Shown here: piece after piece, positions 9,384 to 63,655 of the stretch
How the letters are laid out: every line of letters starts with the position of its first letter
How positions within the stretch are numbered: position 1 is the stretch's first letter
DNA from: an uncultured Dehalococcoidia bacterium
GTDB taxonomy: Bacteria > Chloroflexota > Dehalococcoidia > Lucifugimonadales > UBA826
NCBI GenBank assembly: GCA_964602845.1
Contig: CAZRSW010000001.1
Coordinates: 13,018-77,017 of the forward strand
Reading direction: 5' to 3'
Length of the DNA: 64,000 nucleotides
Position numbers and translations under genes: made by a program
The notes under the pieces: generated by a model
Databases searched by the model: none
Seen by the model: the letters and a program-made list of their open reading frames with translations, nothing else
What the model was told of the DNA's origin: nothing

Positions 9384-10918
9384 GTGATCAGCTAGCAACC
9401 GAACCGCCCTATGGGAGCGTGGTACTGGTCGGGGCCGGGCCGGGAGACCCTGAACTCTTAACGATAGCGGGTTGTCGCCATTTGATGACGGCGGACGTGG
9501 TGTTGCACGATAGGCTTGTAGGGCCACAGATATTGGATCGAATAAATGTTGGAGCCCGCGTGATTAATGTTGGTAAGAGCTCTGACGGGAAAGGTTTGTC
9601 TCAAGAGGACATTAATCACGCGCTGTTGGGAGAGTGCCGTGCTGGGAATAAGGTAGTCAGATTGAAGGGTGGAGACCCCATGGTTTTTGGAAGAGGTGCG
9701 GAAGAAGCTCTATTTCTGATGAAGGAAGGTATACCATGTGAAGTTGTCCCAGGAATTAGCTCAGCGATTGCCGGTCCCTCCGCAGCTGGCATACCCGTTA
9801 CTCATAGGGGAATATCATCCTGTTTCTCCGTTGTTACGGCTAGTGAAGACCCTGAAAAATTGATCACGTCTGTTGATTGGGGATTATTAGCCAAGGGGGG
9901 GCACACACTTGTTATCTTAATGGTATTGAAACGTATTGATCAGGTTGTATCGTTGTTGATTAGCGAGGGGAGAGATCCCTCTACACCTTCCGCGCTTATA
10001 CAATCTGCAACGCTTCCGGAGCAATCTGTGTCGACAGGATACCTAAGAGATATTTCCTCCATCGCAGAGGAGTATAATGCTTCCTCACCAGCAATGTTAG
10101 TCGTAGGGAAAGTAGTTGATATAGGGATTCAATTAGGGCCTAGAAGTTTTCTTCCATTGGCAGGGAAAAGGATTTTGGTGACCCGTTCTAGAGCACAGTC
10201 AAGCAGATTATGTGAGCTCATTTTGCGGCTAGGAGGTAGCCCATTGGAACTGCCTACCATAGCCATCCAACCGCAAGACGATTATACAGAACTTGATAGT
10301 TCTATCGAAGATCTCCTAGATTATGATTGGGTTGTTTTTTCTAGCGTAAATGCTGTGGAAAGTTTTTTTTCCAGGCTTTGCGTAGGTAAACGAGATGCGA
10401 GATACATGCAATCAATTAAAATAGCGGCAATAGGTCCATCAACAGCATCTGCTTTGCGTGACCGGGGTTTGGTTGCTGACTTGGTTCCAGATAAATCTAC
10501 GTCAGAATCTTTGGTTCAATGCTTTGGAGAAGTTGTTGAAGGAGGTCTTGATGTTATTGTTCTTGGCCCGGAATCTGCTCCTGCCACCATTCGAAACGGA
10601 CTCACCTCTCTAGGCTGTAAAGTTCGCCAGGTTGCCGCCTACAGAACGATTATTCCTAAGAATACCCATGAGAATGTAAGGAAATTGATGGAGAAGAGGC
10701 TAGATGTTATTACATTCACCAGTTCTTCTACGGTGAGAAATTTCCTGTCGATATGGAATGGGATTATACCGAGTGATGTGGTAATAGCGTGTATAGGGCC
10801 TGCTACTGCAGCAACAGCAGTTGAAATGGGGATTAGTCCAGATATAGTGGCTGAGCCACATAACGTGGACGGGTTGGTGGATTCAATAACAGGCTATTAC
10901 AGTCGGGGAGATGAGTAA
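9380..10918 (+). CDS. cobA/hemD: Fused uroporphyrinogen-III C-methyltransferase / uroporphyrinogen-III synthase
   Basis: 512 aa. The N-terminal half has VVLVGAGPGDPELLT, GGDPMVFGRG and VVPGISS (SUMT). The C-terminal half, from about GKRILVTRSRAQS, is HemD-like. ATGA overlap with hemC. Confidence 0.85.
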   Translation: MSDQLATEPPYGSVVLVGAGPGDPELLTIAGCRHLMTADVVLHDRLVGPQILDRINVGARVINVGKSSDGKGLSQEDINHALLGECRAGNKVVRLKGGDPMVFGRGAEEALFLMKEGIPCEVVPGISSAIAGPSAAGIPVTHRGISSCFSVVTASEDPEKLITSVDWGLLAKGGHTLVILMVLKRIDQVVSLLISEGRDPSTPSALIQSATLPEQSVSTGYLRDISSIAEEYNASSPAMLVVGKVVDIGIQLGPRSFLPLAGKRILVTRSRAQSSRLCELILRLGGSPLELPTIAIQPQDDYTELDSSIEDLLDYDWVVFSSVNAVESFFSRLCVGKRDARYMQSIKIAAIGPSTASALRDRGLVADLVPDKSTSESLVQCFGEVVEGGLDVIVLGPESAPATIRNGLTSLGCKVRQVAAYRTIIPKNTHENVRKLMEKRLDVITFTSSSTVRNFLSIWNGIIPSDVVIACIGPATAATAVEMGISPDIVAEPHNVDGLVDSITGYYSRGDE

Positions 10919-11899
10919 TTGGAATATCGTCCAGATTTTAGGTTGAGGAGGATGAGGAAAAATCCTATTCTCCGAAGTATGGTTAGTGAAACCAGACTGT
11001 CTCTTAATGATTTGATATACCCAATTTTTGTGAAAGAAGGAATTGATTCGCGTGAAGAAGTGAGACCAATGCCAGGTATACATCAATTATCGGTCGATGC
11101 TCTTGTTGAAGAAGCAAAAGAGGTACATCAGTTGGGGATTACAGCAATACTTCTGTTTGGGATTCCTGATTATAAGGATAGTCTGGGAACGGCTGCATAT
11201 AAGTCGGACGGGGTTATACAAATGGCCATACAGTCCCTGAAGAAACATATTCCAGAATTGATGCTTATAACGGATGTGTGCCTGTGTGATTATACTGATC
11301 ATGGTCATTGTGGTGTTGTATTGGATAATGGTATAGACAATGACAGGAGTCTTGAACTTTTGGCTCGGATTGCATTAAGTCACGTTGAATCTGGGGCGGA
11401 TATGGTAGCCCCGTCAGCCATGATGGATGGGCAGGTAGGAGCTATACGGAATATCTTAAATCAATCGAGATTTAGCGAGATTCCGATAATGGGGTATTCT
11501 GCTAAATATGCATCGAGTTTCTATGGGCCCTTTAGAGTTGCGGCTGAATCATCCCCACAGTTTGGTGACAGAAAGTCGTATCAGATGGATATTGCCAATA
11601 GGAATCAGGCAATGATAGAAATCCAGCAAGATATTAATGAAGGTGCAGATATAGTAATGGTTAAACCTGCCCTGGCAAATTTAGATGTTATACATGAAGC
11701 CAAAGTTAGATTCAGTCATCCTATTGCTGCTTATAATGTCAGTGGCGAATATGCCATGGTCAAGGCTGCATCCGAGAATGGATGGATTGATGGGGAAGAG
11801 ATTGCATTAGAAATCATTACCTCAATAAAGAGAAGTGGCGCAGATATTATCATCTCCTATCATGCTAAAGAACTAGCAGGGGCTATATCGTCATCGTAG
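10919..11899 (+). CDS. hemB: Porphobilinogen synthase (delta-aminolevulinate dehydratase)
   Basis: 326 aa. RLRRMRKNPILRSMVSETRLSLNDLIYPIFV is the ALAD N-terminus. TTG start abuts the cobA/hemD stop. Confidence 0.9.
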   Translation: MEYRPDFRLRRMRKNPILRSMVSETRLSLNDLIYPIFVKEGIDSREEVRPMPGIHQLSVDALVEEAKEVHQLGITAILLFGIPDYKDSLGTAAYKSDGVIQMAIQSLKKHIPELMLITDVCLCDYTDHGHCGVVLDNGIDNDRSLELLARIALSHVESGADMVAPSAMMDGQVGAIRNILNQSRFSEIPIMGYSAKYASSFYGPFRVAAESSPQFGDRKSYQMDIANRNQAMIEIQQDINEGADIVMVKPALANLDVIHEAKVRFSHPIAAYNVSGEYAMVKAASENGWIDGEEIALEIITSIKRSGADIIISYHAKELAGAISSS

Positions 11900-59068: not shown

Positions 59069-59098
59069 TAGTGGTTTCTCCGTGCTAAGGACGTGAAT

Positions 59099-59599
59099 AT
59101 GCTGTCCAATAACAACGATCAAAAAGAAGCTCACTGTATAGAATTTATGTTGCCCGTGGACTCCTTTGCTGTATCGTATTTTTCGAACTTGCTTAGAATA
59201 ATTCAGGTGGCCATTAGGGAATTAGCTAAGACATTTGAATCCGCCTATGAAGTCTCAGATGAAGATCTACAGTCTATATTGCATTTCTCTCCCGTGATCG
59301 AAAACGGAGAATTGATCCTGCGTTTTTCCTTTCGCCATCTTGAAAGTCGTGCTGGAGCGGATAAATTTACAAGCGGAATATCCACGGTGTTTTTCGATGA
59401 GTTGTTGACGTACCTGAGCGGCAATGCCCAGACTGATCTTTGGGGTAATATATCACCTATCGCAAATCATGCTCTATCGGACTCGATGAAAACCAGGTTT
59501 GATCGAATTAGAAAAGAATTGCGACGTATTCCGGGTTCTTCGATAAGCGTAAATAATCGTGCAATCGTATTTTCTGAAGATACGTTTAAGGTGATTTGA
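59099..59599 (+). CDS. Hypothetical protein, first gene of the NurA-HerA cassette
   Basis: 166 aa from ATG 59099, with AAGGA 7 nt upstream (the track uses GTG 59093). No motif I recognise. 4-nt overlap with the next gene. Confidence 0.5.
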   Translation: MLSNNNDQKEAHCIEFMLPVDSFAVSYFSNLLRIIQVAIRELAKTFESAYEVSDEDLQSILHFSPVIENGELILRFSFRHLESRAGADKFTSGISTVFFDELLTYLSGNAQTDLWGNISPIANHALSDSMKTRFDRIRKELRRIPGSSISVNNRAIVFSEDTFKVI

Positions 59600-60816
59600 T
59601 ATTGGCTCTAGACTTGGCTAAGACGGCGTTGCAAATCGATTCTATGACTTTGGCAATCGACGGCCGAAGTGATCAAGTATTAGAGCGCGTTATAAACGCG
59701 GTATCAGCAATGAAGCGACTGGATCCAAAGGTATATGCAAAAAAGACTCAAGATTCAGAAGGAATGTTTAAATGGGGCACGCCGGCTATTCTGGAAGAGC
59801 CGGGGAAAACTTTCCCTCCACCAAAGGTTCCCGTGGAACATAAGGTGATTGGAGTGGATGGTTCCCATATTGATGTTGACCGTCATATACCTGCCCATTG
59901 TTATTTGATCAATACCGGGTTGGTCAGCCTGAATTATGGGCCGACCCCTTCAGTTGTCATGAGAAATGATCCTAGCTTATATTTTGAGAGTGAGGAGACT
60001 TTCATAACGGATTTGCATGGCTCTACTGATTCGATGAAGATTACGGGATCTCTTTTGGGGGCCGTTCGTACTGTAAAAGAAATTGATATTCTCAGGGATG
60101 CCATCACGGATGGCAACGATGATATACCGGTAGTTGGATTAATGGACGGGACCCTTATCATGTTGGATTTGATCAGAGCAGGGTTTCCTGATTATGTTCT
60201 CAAACAGGTATTACAAGGTGGTTTTTTGTCCGCCATGTCCGACATTCGAGATTTGTCTAAGGATAAACCCCTTGCGATAGGGAGTTATATCAGTCTTCCG
60301 GGGACATCCGAGGTGGTCGATGCACTGAGATTATCGGTATGCCCATATACTGTCTCGGATTGTGCAAGCCATTGTGCATCCGTGTCCGCCTCCCATAGAC
60401 CTTGCGATGAGGTTTCTCATGAAATATTGGACAGGCAGATATTCGAACATCACTTACCCCATGGGCATAGGTCCCCTATTTTCGGCAGCAGCTCAAGAAT
60501 GGTGGAAAAATTTTATGGAGGGAATCTTGTAGGTTTTTTTTATGTAAACGTAGGGGAAGAAATCGCCCGAATAGAAGTTCCAGAATGGGTGTACACGGAT
60601 AAAGAAAAAATTGATTTGATTCACGCTGTGATACTCAACCAATGCATGTTGGGGCCAGGTTATCCCACTGCCCTCATGGAAGCGCATGAGCAAGCGGTTA
60701 TCTCAACCTCAGATAGACTATTCTTTTTGAACTCGATAGAGGGAGCGTTTGAATCTCAAGGTGTTAAGTTTTATACGTCTCAAAAGAATAGATCAAAAAG
60801 ACTACGTTGGTTATAA
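59596..60816 (+). CDS. nurA: NurA-domain nuclease-like protein
   Basis: 406 aa. VIGVDGSHID, GLMDGTLIM and GPGYPTALMEAHEQAVIS follow the NurA pattern of acidic and His catalytic motifs. It shares an operon with a HerA ATPase. TTG start. Confidence 0.65.
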   Translation: MILALDLAKTALQIDSMTLAIDGRSDQVLERVINAVSAMKRLDPKVYAKKTQDSEGMFKWGTPAILEEPGKTFPPPKVPVEHKVIGVDGSHIDVDRHIPAHCYLINTGLVSLNYGPTPSVVMRNDPSLYFESEETFITDLHGSTDSMKITGSLLGAVRTVKEIDILRDAITDGNDDIPVVGLMDGTLIMLDLIRAGFPDYVLKQVLQGGFLSAMSDIRDLSKDKPLAIGSYISLPGTSEVVDALRLSVCPYTVSDCASHCASVSASHRPCDEVSHEILDRQIFEHHLPHGHRSPIFGSSSRMVEKFYGGNLVGFFYVNVGEEIARIEVPEWVYTDKEKIDLIHAVILNQCMLGPGYPTALMEAHEQAVISTSDRLFFLNSIEGAFESQGVKFYTSQKNRSKRLRWL

Positions 60817-60831
60817 GATGGACTCAATTTG

Positions 60832-61404
60832 ATGAAAATAGGTGAAATTATAGAAAGTGACACTAATGGATTTACTGCGCGATGCTACAAACTATACGAA
60901 GGGCCCGATTTGGGGTGTTTGATAAAGGCAGGAACCGACAATTCGGTCTATGGCATCGTGGCTCATGTGGCTACATTAGGATTGGATCCTTCACGTCGTC
61001 CAATAACACGTGGGGAAAACCTAGAGTCTGAAGATGAGGTGTATTTGCGCAATCCACAATTGACCCGTCTACTCACCACGGAAATTAAAGCAATCACTGT
61101 TGGTTTCTCAGATGGTATGGAATTTAAGCATTACTTGCCTGCCTCACCGCCAAGGCTACATTCCTTTGTGTCAATTTGTGGAAATGATGAATGGATTTCT
61201 TTCTCTGACCGGCTGTACTTTCTTAAAAGTGTTATATCTTCTGGTTTGCCTCAAGGGGATGACATTATTGGATCCTTTGTAAGGCAAACGTCAGAATTGG
61301 TTTCTGATCCAGTGTCTTACAAACTCAAGGCTGCTAGAAGTATAGCGAAATTTTTGGGAGGCGATACTAACAGACTTGAGTCCATAGTGAGGAGAATACG
61401 CTGA
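60832..61404 (+). CDS. Hypothetical protein with HAS-barrel-like N-terminus
   Basis: 190 aa from ATG 60832. The N-terminus KIGEIIESDTNGFTARCYKLYEGPDLGCLIKAGTDNSVYGIVAHV resembles the barrel at the HerA N-terminus. Its stop overlaps the herA ATG (TGATG). Confidence 0.5.
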   Translation: MKIGEIIESDTNGFTARCYKLYEGPDLGCLIKAGTDNSVYGIVAHVATLGLDPSRRPITRGENLESEDEVYLRNPQLTRLLTTEIKAITVGFSDGMEFKHYLPASPPRLHSFVSICGNDEWISFSDRLYFLKSVISSGLPQGDDIIGSFVRQTSELVSDPVSYKLKAARSIAKFLGGDTNRLESIVRRIR

Positions 61405-63041
61405 TGTCGGAGATAGGTCCCGAAAACTACCAGCTTGGCACGGTCGTGTCTGGGTCGTTAAGCGAAGGAGTCAAAGTTAGACTTTCGACTGAATATTCAG
61501 TCGAAAACGTGAAAGTCGGATCAAACGTTGTAATCCAGGGGAAACATCACAGATTTTTTGGGGTCGTAACTGATGTTTCTTTGGGATCCTCAGATTTGAC
61601 TCTACAATACGATCTCCCAGATGTTTCTGATTCATTTATGGCTGAGGTGTTGGCTGGCACGACCGTTTATGGAACCATTACCGTGGAGCCGATGTTGACC
61701 ATTGGGATAGATTCTTCCTCCGATGGTTTCGGGCCAATGCCAGCAAAGACTGTTCCGGAACATTTTTCGAGCACATTTGATGCTTCTGATGACGATATTT
61801 ATCATATTTTTGGACCAGAAGGGGATGGGCATTTTTGGATAGGCAGTCCACTAGATATGGAAGCAAAACTATGTTTGGATATTGAGGAACTAGTAAAACG
61901 TAGTAATGGAGTATTTGGTAAAAGCGGGACAGGTAAGACATTTCTTACAAGATTGTTGCTGATTGGAATTCTTCAAAGCGGTAAGGCTAGTAATCTCATA
62001 TTTGATATGCACAATGAGTATGGGTGGCAGGGAACGAGCGAATCTTCTACGGCTGTCAAAGGTCTCAAACAGCTTTTTAGTGCACAAGTGGCTGTATTTT
62101 CACTTGACGCCGAAAGCTCGAAGCGTCGAGGGTTCCATCCAGACTTTCAGGTGGAATTTGGGTACAGTGATATAGATCCTGAAGATATACAGTTGCTCAG
62201 GGAGACATTGGACTTGTCTAACGTCGCTGCGGATGCGGCTTACGCTCTGGAGTCGAGATTTGGTAGAGGAAAATGGTTCGGTGAATTTGTTAAACTTCGA
62301 GGGGAAGACATAAACAATCTTGCGACCGAGATCAACGTAGCATCGTCAGCCTTATCCGCTCTTAGACGACGACTTGAGAGACTTATTAGGTTTGATTTTG
62401 TGTCTCAAAATGATGTTGCTGATTCTGCGGATTCAATCATAAAAACTCTACGTAATGGAAAACATGTTGTCTTGGAATTTGGCAAACATGGTAATAATCC
62501 CACCGCTTATATGTTAGTTGCTAACATACTCACACGAAGAATATATGAAAGATACCAAAGTCAAAAAGAAGAATCACTGGGTGGGGGAGCAGAGGTACCT
62601 CCCTATTTGGTCATCACAATAGAAGAAGCTCATAGATTCTTGGGATCCTCAATGGCAAGTCAAACAATTTTTGGGACTATTGCCAGGGAAATGAGAAAGT
62701 ACAATGTTACTCTGTTAGTGGTTGATCAGCGACCTAGTGATATAGATGAAGAGGTTATGAGTCAGATTGGGACTAAGGTTGTATGTCTGCTTGACAGTGG
62801 TAGGGATATTGACTCTGTGCTGTCAGGAGTTTCAGGAAATCGCAAGCTCAGATCTGTTCTTGCTAGGCTAGACTCTCGACAACAGGCCATTATCTTTGGG
62901 CATTCAGTTCCAATGCCTGTTGTTATAAGGACCAGAGACTACGGAAGCGCTGAATCCTACAGCGAATTTATGACTACTAACGAGAGAACGGTCGAGGGTT
63001 TGCAAAATAAACTGGAAGACTTGTACGGACCAAGTGATTAA
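61404..63041 (+). CDS. herA: HerA/DUF87 family hexameric ATPase (FtsK-HerA superfamily)
   Basis: 545 aa. HAS-barrel N-terminus (LGTVVSGSLSEGVKVRL...FFGVVTDV), Walker A GKSGTGKT (nt 61917-61940), Walker B VITIEEAHRF, and LLVVDQRPSDID. Confidence 0.8.
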   Translation: MSEIGPENYQLGTVVSGSLSEGVKVRLSTEYSVENVKVGSNVVIQGKHHRFFGVVTDVSLGSSDLTLQYDLPDVSDSFMAEVLAGTTVYGTITVEPMLTIGIDSSSDGFGPMPAKTVPEHFSSTFDASDDDIYHIFGPEGDGHFWIGSPLDMEAKLCLDIEELVKRSNGVFGKSGTGKTFLTRLLLIGILQSGKASNLIFDMHNEYGWQGTSESSTAVKGLKQLFSAQVAVFSLDAESSKRRGFHPDFQVEFGYSDIDPEDIQLLRETLDLSNVAADAAYALESRFGRGKWFGEFVKLRGEDINNLATEINVASSALSALRRRLERLIRFDFVSQNDVADSADSIIKTLRNGKHVVLEFGKHGNNPTAYMLVANILTRRIYERYQSQKEESLGGGAEVPPYLVITIEEAHRFLGSSMASQTIFGTIAREMRKYNVTLLVVDQRPSDIDEEVMSQIGTKVVCLLDSGRDIDSVLSGVSGNRKLRSVLARLDSRQQAIIFGHSVPMPVVIRTRDYGSAESYSEFMTTNERTVEGLQNKLEDLYGPSD

Positions 63042-63655
63042 ATATTTAGTTCCTCTAATTCTTGGTCGTCGAGTCCAAAATGATGCGCGATCTCATGGAT
63101 TATTGTGGCCCTAATCTCGGTCATGATCTCCTCTTCTGTGCTGCACAAACTTTCAATAGCGTCCTGAAACAAGGTTATCTTATCTGGCAGGACTAGTTCA
63201 TATCCGTACCTTTCCGTAATTGGGATTCCTTCATATATACCCAGTAGATCCTGCCCCATATTAAGCCCGGTTCCTAAGAGTTGATCTTCCGTAGGCCGGC
63301 TTGAAACAATAACATCGACGTTATCTAACTTGTTCAAAATCTCACCTGGCAATTCAGAGATCACCTTTCTTGTATAACATTCAAATACATTCTGCTTTGC
63401 AATAAGCTCCTTACCATATGCATCAGCCTGTCTCATTAAGTCTTGCTGTGAAGTACGGCTCTGTATATATTGTGATGCCTGTTGCTGTGCCTCTTCAGGG
63501 CTAGCTCCCTGCGATTCTAGTTGTCTTTGTACCCTTTCATATTCCTGTTGTACAACAGCCCTCTGTCTAACCTGTTCATATTCAGTACCTTCATTTGATT
63601 CAGGTGCTGGTGCCTCCATTGGTTCTGGCTCTGGTTCTGTATTGTTGGTTACCAT
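63038..63655 (-). CDS. Small zinc metallopeptidase family protein (DUF1025-like) with Q/E-rich N-terminal extension
   Basis: 205 aa. C-terminal IIHEIAHHFGLDD (HExxH). The N-terminal ~90 aa are low-complexity E/Q/P-rich. Confidence 0.65.
   Translation of the reverse strand: MVTNNTEPEPEPMEAPAPESNEGTEYEQVRQRAVVQQEYERVQRQLESQGASPEEAQQQASQYIQSRTSQQDLMRQADAYGKELIAKQNVFECYTRKVISELPGEILNKLDNVDVIVSSRPTEDQLLGTGLNMGQDLLGIYEGIPITERYGYELVLPDKITLFQDAIESLCSTEEEIMTEIRATIIHEIAHHFGLDDQELEELNI

Follow-up and report, generated by a model that had tools for sequence, protein, structure and literature searches.

The window analyzed here is a stretch of 64,000 nucleotides from an uncultured Dehalococcoidia bacterium (contig CAZRSW010000001.1, assembly GCA_964602845.1), in which four genes directly follow selB, the gene for the selenocysteine-specific elongation factor. 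The initial annotation had described these four genes as a NurA–HerA cassette with two extra, obligatory-looking subunits, possibly a new repair machine or a defence module. Our analysis indicates that the block is composite: genes 2, 3, and 4 would encode a DNA end-processing module that consists of a NurA nuclease, a stand-alone HAS-barrel protein, and a HerA ATPase, and gene 1 would sit in the variable position that separates selB from nurA, a reading to which we assign a probability of about 70%. NurA–HerA is the archaeal-type DNA end-resection motor; what it does in bacteria and how it is controlled there is not yet clear. The trio is best read as a three-gene variant of this known end-resection machine rather than as a new four-part machine, and we infer that it functions in DNA repair in vivo.

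The identity of the two enzymes was confirmed by family matches. Gene 2 matches Pfam NurA (PF09376) over profile positions 1–254 of 254 (E = 5.1e-14; 52.8 bits, cutoff 21), and gene 4 is a HerA/DUF87 ATPase that matches Pfam DUF87 (E = 6.7e-28; 98.7 bits, cutoff 23.2) and Pfam HAS-barrel (E = 4.5e-6; 27.1 bits, cutoff 25.2) and carries Walker A and B motifs. All motifs quoted in the initial annotation (VIGVDGSH, MDGTL, GYPTALMEAHEQAVIS, GKSGTGKT, IEEAH, and VVDQRPSD) were found. In the HerA family alignment, GKSGTGKT and IEEAH are invariant, as are residues K178, E407, E408, and R443, and in an alignment of 31 NurA homologues, residues D88, E162, D184, and H364 are invariant. We found 627 NurA homologues at about 45% identity, and the pairing with a HerA-family ATPase is seen in the same-strand block of the window as well as in 56 of the 78 informative related loci. 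Judged by sequence, both proteins appear to come from divergent clades. The NurA clade would be divergent because its sequence profile reached no NurA structure in the PDB, and HerA would form a distinct clade because its scores are far below the NCBIfam equivalog cutoffs, with 72.3 bits versus 970 and 81.4 bits versus 800 for the repair-type families NF040819 and NF040937, and 83 bits versus 800 and 47.7 bits versus 850 for the antiphage families NF042943/NF042944. When HerA was compared with the PDB using phmmer, the three best matches were SIR2-HerA (1.7e-19), Sulfolobus HerA (4.3e-17), and Thermococcus HerA (3.7e-14), and the HerA of Deinococcus radiodurans was not reached at E ≤ 1e-3.

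Gene 3 had been considered unassignable, and its window copy indeed has no match in Pfam (E ≤ 1), PADLOC (E ≤ 1), or NCBIfam. A word-indexed homologue search with genes 1 and 3 returned near-identical marine copies only, and an exhaustive phmmer search revealed a gene 3 family of 582 clusters at 50% identity, mostly about 190–215 residues in length; the source names seen for it all read ‘hypothetical protein’. The AlphaFold2 model of gene 3, which was built from an 82-sequence alignment, is of high confidence (predicted local distance difference test, pLDDT, 97.2; predicted template modeling score 0.90) and shows an N-terminal beta-barrel (residues 3–116) that is followed by a well-packed C-terminal helical bundle. 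In a Foldseek comparison of this model with the PDB, the top 50 matches were all HerA proteins, aligned in their N-terminal region over 124–152 columns (best match 4d2i, E = 4.7e-6); in a profile comparison with hhalign, gene 3 residues 4–135 aligned in register with residues 7–140 of the adjacent HerA family (P = 1e-3); and 32 of the 82 gene 3 family members matched Pfam HAS-barrel (PF09378) when scanned singly, with a best value of 2e-9 and no other recurring family. These three lines of evidence are the basis for the assignment to the HAS-barrel fold, and two precomputed annotations likewise assign gene 3 to the HAS-barrel/HerA N-terminal module. The sequence profile of gene 3 found nothing significant in the PDB, and the model found nothing below E = 0.1 in a viral structure library. 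Gene 3 can thus be named after all, as it falls into a characterized domain family, and it is predicted to be a free-standing paralogue of the HerA N-terminal module that has no ATPase domain.

Homology to the first ~135 HerA residues and a position immediately upstream of herA would also be expected if gene 3 were a pseudogene, left behind after herA had been duplicated and one copy truncated. We rejected this pseudogene explanation, which we regard as hardly credible, on the grounds of conservation: beyond the family size and the maintained protein length given above, the family has conserved motifs, in which P76 is invariant and R56 nearly so, the model includes a distinct C-terminal helical bundle in addition to the barrel, and gene 3 is kept across the Chloroflexota classes and in a metagenome-assembled genome (MAG) of the Clostridia.

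The gene order in related genomes supports the view that gene 3 belongs to NurA and HerA. We collected a NurA-anchored set of 85 loci; of the species-genome matches, at least 563 in number, the best 80 all came from Dehalococcoidia, SAR202, or Chloroflexota. Gene 3 and HerA occur together in 61 of 61 NurA-anchored loci, with gene 3 just upstream of HerA. Gene 3 precedes HerA wherever HerA occurs and, in all loci seen, comes after NurA, and in a second set of loci, anchored on gene 1, each locus with HerA also has gene 3. In the distant loci L086, L089, L090, L091, L140, L141, and L142, gene 3 directly follows NurA, with overlaps of 1–10 nt or short gaps. The co-occurrence with HerA and the tight NurA–gene 3 junctions in distant loci therefore tie gene 3 to both of its neighbors, and in this respect the initial annotation was correct in proposing a conserved extra partner of NurA–HerA. 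Where insertions are present in the trio, they are located between NurA and gene 3.

The comparison also clarified how the locus is inherited. Dehalococcoidia and SAR202 genomes have kept a synteny of PALP, thiolase, selB, the block, and Zincin_1; selB is present in 74 of the 85 NurA-anchored loci, mostly on the same strand and upstream of NurA, and the Zincin_1-like gene is found downstream of HerA in 32 of the 85. For the window together with 48 non-identical loci, pairwise distances of the three proteins correlate with those of SelB (Pearson r = 0.94 for NurA, 0.84 for gene 3, and 0.83 for HerA; Mantel p = 0.001 each), and HerA is more conserved than SelB, with mean p-distances of 0.36 and 0.40, respectively. 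No homologues of gene 3 or NurA were found in 72,556 plasmids, none of gene 3 in 50,697 phage genomes, and the NurA profile found nothing in IMG/VR. The trio is an ancient chromosomal three-gene module that is inherited vertically. It had been considered in advance that the block might turn out to be a vertically inherited core locus, and with regard to inheritance, this is essentially what the synteny and the distances tracking SelB indicate.

A link to end resection comes from two distant loci, one in a Clostridia MAG (L089) and one of unknown taxon (L091), in which NurA, gene 3, and HerA are directly followed by genes for a Metallophos protein (Mre11/SbcD-like) and an SMC_N/SbcC protein (Rad50-like). 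The identities to the window proteins are 34–36% for NurA, 30–33% for gene 3, and 47% for HerA. This arrangement reads as the classical archaeal-type double-strand-break operon with gene 3 inserted.

Several observations weigh against the end-processing reading of the block. No Mre11 or Rad50 homologue is encoded within the 64-kb window, and the tie to the canonical pathway is therefore indirect for this genome. The bacterial NurA–HerA phenotype is itself debated in the Thermus and Deinococcus literature. HerA remains far below the NCBIfam cutoffs of the repair type as well as of the antiphage type, and its best sequence match in the PDB is the SIR2-HerA defence protein. Gene 3 and HerA are missing within several kb of NurA in 22 of the 78 NurA loci with enough flanking sequence (for example L001/L009, L020, L025, and L058), and L090 and L141 have NurA and gene 3 without an adjacent HerA, so the trio is not inseparable. 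Finally, the assignment of gene 3 draws chiefly on its modeled fold and on the matches of its homologues, as the window copy itself gives no Pfam HAS-barrel match at E ≤ 0.1, and the probability of the hhalign alignment with HerA is just 22%.

Gene 1 differs from gene 3 in its associations. The initial annotation had found no family for it, and this stands: there was no match in Pfam, PADLOC, NCBIfam, or the PDB, and 32 family members scanned singly against Pfam gave singleton matches only (E ≥ 0.019). The AlphaFold2 model, based on a shallow alignment, has a pLDDT of 68, and its Foldseek matches to biotin ligase and other proteins were discarded as noise (E ≥ 0.16, root mean square deviation about 15 Å). 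With an iterated profile search, gene 1 was detected in 31 of the 85 NurA loci, each time right behind selB, and was missing from 54. In many loci without gene 1, there is no space for it, as the selB end is only 4–100 nt away from NurA, and elsewhere the slot contains genes for a fumarylacetoacetase-like protein, an alpha/beta-hydrolase, an unrelated 273-residue protein, or Zincin_2. In six genomes, the selB–gene 1 pair is retained, with NurA 3–6 kb away on the opposite strand. The gene-1-anchored metagenome scan of 48 loci (L092–L139) gave the complementary picture, with selB immediately upstream of gene 1 in 42 of 42 informative loci, typically about 20–120 nt away, NurA as its direct downstream neighbor in 27 of the 33 informative cases, and at least four loci without NurA within 5 kb.

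These data bear on the idea that NurA and HerA require both gene 1 and gene 3 in an obligate four-subunit machine. The tight packing and possible translational coupling of all four genes in the window, as well as the frequent position of NurA directly after gene 1, are what such a machine would predict. Across genomes, however, this architecture dissolves as a unit: gene 1 is missing from most NurA loci, frequently with no room left for it, its slot is taken by unrelated genes in L034, L071, and L073 and by Zincin_2 in L086 and L090, it stays with selB where NurA is elsewhere or absent, and it is missing from the Mre11–Rad50-linked loci L089 and L091. We therefore consider an obligate four-subunit machine quite improbable. 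Gene 1 is not an obligatory subunit, since it is absent from 54 of 85 NurA loci, its slot is variable, and its constant partner is selB. It rather appears to be a selB-linked, lineage-restricted accessory gene and no core NurA–HerA component. It might encode a selB-associated factor limited to marine Dehalococcoidia/SAR202, possibly a previously unknown one, which would be a matter separate from that of the trio.

A function in anti-phage defence had been the second option of the initial annotation. HerA would then be a sensor or assembly platform that activates NurA as effector, as in SIR2-HerA (Nezha) or DUF4297-HerA, with genes 1 and 3 as accessory sensors. HerA does match PADLOC HerA models, the best being PDLC04105 (2.3e-33), although only with its C-terminal part. 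The SIR2-HerA protein is its closest PDB sequence match, and some related loci have toxin–antitoxin genes between NurA and gene 3 or an OLD-family nuclease gene downstream of HerA. In contrast, genes 1 and 3 gave no PADLOC match at E ≤ 1 and NurA only a noise match (0.048), HerA reached 83 bits where the antiphage HerA equivalog demands 800, and there is no adjacent SIR2, DUF4297, or other catalogued effector, gene 2 being NurA by Pfam. Further points that disfavor defence are the housekeeping synteny kept across the whole class, the distances that track SelB with a HerA that evolves more slowly than SelB, the lack of copies on the plasmids, phage genomes, and viral contigs searched, and the orthologous trios that directly precede Mre11–Rad50 genes in L089 and L091. 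Because of the synteny, the SelB-tracking distances, the lack of mobile homologues, the lack of PADLOC matches for genes 1–3, and the Mre11–Rad50 loci, we favor a DNA end-processing module over a defence island and regard the latter as improbable.

Small defence and toxin–antitoxin genes do enter the surroundings of the conserved locus. Many genomes have a gene for a GNAT acetyltransferase of ~168 residues between NurA and gene 3, and some have PIN/VapC or nucleotidyltransferase-type toxin–antitoxin genes; insertions at this position were recorded for L016, L017, L021, L026, L027, L031, L037, L040, and L060, and also for L016, L027, L044, and L060. In L002, an OLD-family nuclease gene (AAA_15/AAA_21 plus TOPRIM; 10175–11779) lies directly downstream of HerA, and on the upstream side the genes for thiolase and PALP are separated by one for a PIN-domain protein. 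Some NurA homologues (P0010 and P0077) are labeled ‘GNAT superfamily N-acetyltransferase’ by JGI, probably because of the GNAT gene that is inserted beside NurA.

A further use of such an enzyme pair is known from Thermus, where DNA donation employs a NurA-like nuclease encoded upstream of a HerA-family ATPase (PMC5365140). The block could in principle be a DNA export or transfer device similar to the NurA-like/TdtA pair of the Thermus thermophilus element ICEth1 in transjugation. This is very improbable: the loci examined showed no hallmark of a mobile element next to the trio, such as an integrase, a restriction enzyme, or direct repeats, plasmid and viral homologues were not detected, and the synteny is conserved and the pattern vertical.

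How could the three components of the proposed end-processing module work together? By homology to the archaeal and Deinococcus complexes, the HerA hexamer would thread duplex DNA through its ring with the use of ATP, for which K178, E407/E408, and the arginine R443 would be needed, and would pass the DNA to a NurA dimer docked on its HAS-barrel face. NurA may then cut at the conserved D88/E162/D184/H364 site. In the solved Deinococcus complex, it is the HAS-barrel face of HerA on which the NurA dimer docks (PMC9960219), and exactly this docking surface of HerA is copied by gene 3, which gives a testable lead on how the nuclease could be recruited or restrained. We place gene 3 at the NurA/HerA interface because it is linked to both genes and because its close spacing or translational coupling is conserved. 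As a third subunit, it would act by HAS-barrel mimicry at the interface of NurA and the HerA collar, and it could be an adaptor or an assembly or regulatory factor. That gene 3 binds physically to NurA, to HerA, or to both is somewhat probable, and a specific adaptor role is a conjecture that we consider rather unlikely. A broader idea, which we put forward only tentatively and give slightly more credence than the adaptor role, is that gene 3 marks a distinct three-component class of bacterial end-resection systems in Chloroflexota and some Clostridia, with a motor-less HAS-barrel as obligate structural subunit, which might for example form an extra barrel ring or an adaptor between the HerA collar and a metal- or Fe-S-containing NurA. 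If true, such a class would alter nuclease–translocase coupling.

The NurA of the window has an additional peculiarity. It contains a Cys-rich insertion in which C249, C260, and C270 are invariant and C256 is the majority residue of the family consensus but falls outside the invariant and ≥90% columns. With C102 and C350, which are invariant as well, all six cysteines of the window NurA are at conserved positions. The C-x6-C-x3-C-x9-C type of motif recurs in the distant NurA orthologues of L086, L089, and L091. This suggests a candidate metal site, possibly for Zn or Fe-S, and hints at a metal cofactor. To our knowledge, such a site is not described for solved NurA structures. At L088 (3450–5167), we noticed an apparent NurA–gene 3 fusion of 372 residues on a contig that is marked 2x by name; a frameshift or an artefact of the assembly is the probable cause, rather than a genuine fusion.

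A comparison with known systems shows what is shared and what is specific. The NurA–HerA system of D. radiodurans (PDB 7f6d, 7wrw/7wrx; PMC9960219) is likewise bacterial and chromosomal with adjoining nuclease and HerA genes, its HerA has the same HAS-barrel, RecA-like core, and Walker motifs, and the gene 3 model matches the N-terminus of this HerA. However, the description of the Deinococcus system comprises two components and no HAS-barrel protein besides HerA, the window HerA does not reach that of Deinococcus at E ≤ 1e-3 by phmmer, and the window NurA differs by its conserved four-Cys insertion and by a profile that reaches no NurA of the PDB. The archaeal herA-mre11-rad50-nurA operon of Sulfolobus, Pyrococcus, and Thermococcus (PDB 4d2i, 9x1l) encodes the same enzyme pair, the Sulfolobus and Thermococcus HerA are the second and third best PDB matches of the window HerA, and the trio orthologues of L089 and L091 continue directly into Mre11-like and Rad50-like genes. 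In contrast, the window has no mre11 or rad50 and contains in addition a gene that encodes a HAS-barrel alone and separates nurA from herA, its HerA reaches 72–81 bits where the archaeal NCBIfam cutoffs are 800–970, and the conserved upstream neighbor of the block is selB. The anti-phage systems SIR2-HerA/Nezha, DUF4297-HerA, and TdpAB also combine a HerA-family hexameric ATPase with an adjacently encoded effector and resemble the window system in structure and sequence at the HerA level, but the effector of the window is NurA instead of SIR2, DUF4297, or TdpB, and the block has no defence-island context or mobility, shows a vertical pattern, and fails to reach the antiphage equivalog cutoff. 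The HAS-barrel (PF09378) is known from the N-terminus of HerA and also of F1/V1-type ATPase subunits. The gene 3 family shares this fold but would be a free-standing protein of ~190 residues that adds a helical bundle at its C-terminus and lacks a P-loop domain.

Both the enzyme pair and the task that it likely performs are known already, and it is the third subunit and the Cys-rich NurA that are uncharacterized. Full-text literature searches, in which the FtsK–HerA paper of Iyer et al. (2004) was not covered, turned up no account of a stand-alone HAS-barrel protein as a partner of NurA–HerA, and none of NurA–HerA in Chloroflexota either. No new kind of system is revealed, and the part that seemed most exotic, the four-subunit machine, was not upheld across genomes. 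What emerges is that a large bacterial clade, to which the abundant ocean group SAR202 belongs, has a conserved third gene placed between nurA and herA, and we see this finding as a lead for DNA-repair specialists.

The coordinates of the block and its neighbors are compiled in the table. The four same-strand genes in a tight row can be read directly from the sequence and the list of open reading frames (ORFs), and since all four proteins have many homologues, none of them is a chance ORF. Gene 1 could start at GTG 59093 or ATG 59099, 24 or 30 nt after the selB stop, as initially described, and gene 3 at 60829 or 60832. The near-identical database copies have 166 residues for gene 1 (P0003), 404 for NurA (P0009), and 190 for gene 3 (P0001), and the lengths of P0003 and P0001 argue for ATG 59099 and ATG 60832. 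Of the junctions given in the initial annotation, the gap of 15 nt between genes 2 and 3 and the 1-nt TGATG overlap of genes 3 and 4 at 61404 stand. The 4-nt overlap of genes 1 and 2 can be read from the sequence, as the gene 1 stop TGA (59597–59599) overlaps TTG 59596, but according to the length of P0009, NurA probably rather starts at TTG 59602, which would leave a 2-nt gap and still a tight junction.

Table. Positions of the selB-linked block and its flanking genes in the window.
Feature	Position	Strand	Basis
selB, selenocysteine-specific elongation factor, 618 aa	57212–59068	+	ORF; Pfam domains of orthologues
Gene 1, 166 aa	59099–59599	+	ORF; no family match
Gene 2, NurA-family nuclease	59596–60816	+	Pfam NurA
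Cys-rich insertion within NurA, C249-x6-C256-x3-C260-x9-C270	60340–60405	+	Family alignment
Gene 3, predicted stand-alone HAS-barrel protein	60832–61404	+	AlphaFold2 model; Pfam matches of homologues
Gene 4, HerA-type hexameric translocase ATPase	61404–63041	+	Pfam DUF87 and HAS-barrel
HerA, HAS-barrel	61437–61703		
HerA, Walker A GKSGTGKT	61917–61940		
HerA, Walker B IEEAH	62619–62633		
Zincin_1-like gene, convergent, bounds the block	63038–63655	−	ORF; Pfam Zincin_1 of orthologues

The stop codons of HerA (63039–63041, plus strand) and the Zincin_1-like gene (63038–63040, minus strand) overlap, so that there is no intergenic room for a terminator after HerA, and a scan for promoters and terminators gave counts not above the shuffled expectation. 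At the other end, selB and the block are probably transcribed as one unit, with selB as the leading gene. A mis-called GTPase was rejected for this neighbor, as its orthologues have the SelB-specific Pfam domains (GTP_EFTU, Beta-barrel_SelB, and WHD_2nd/3rd_SelB). The adjacency of selB and NurA is kept across the Dehalococcoidia, often with about 4 nt between the aligned regions (L016, L042, L076, L079–L081, L084, and L090), and was again seen in a Herpetosiphonaceae genome with Zincin_2 in between; it is a long-lived linkage of a translation factor gene with a nuclease gene.

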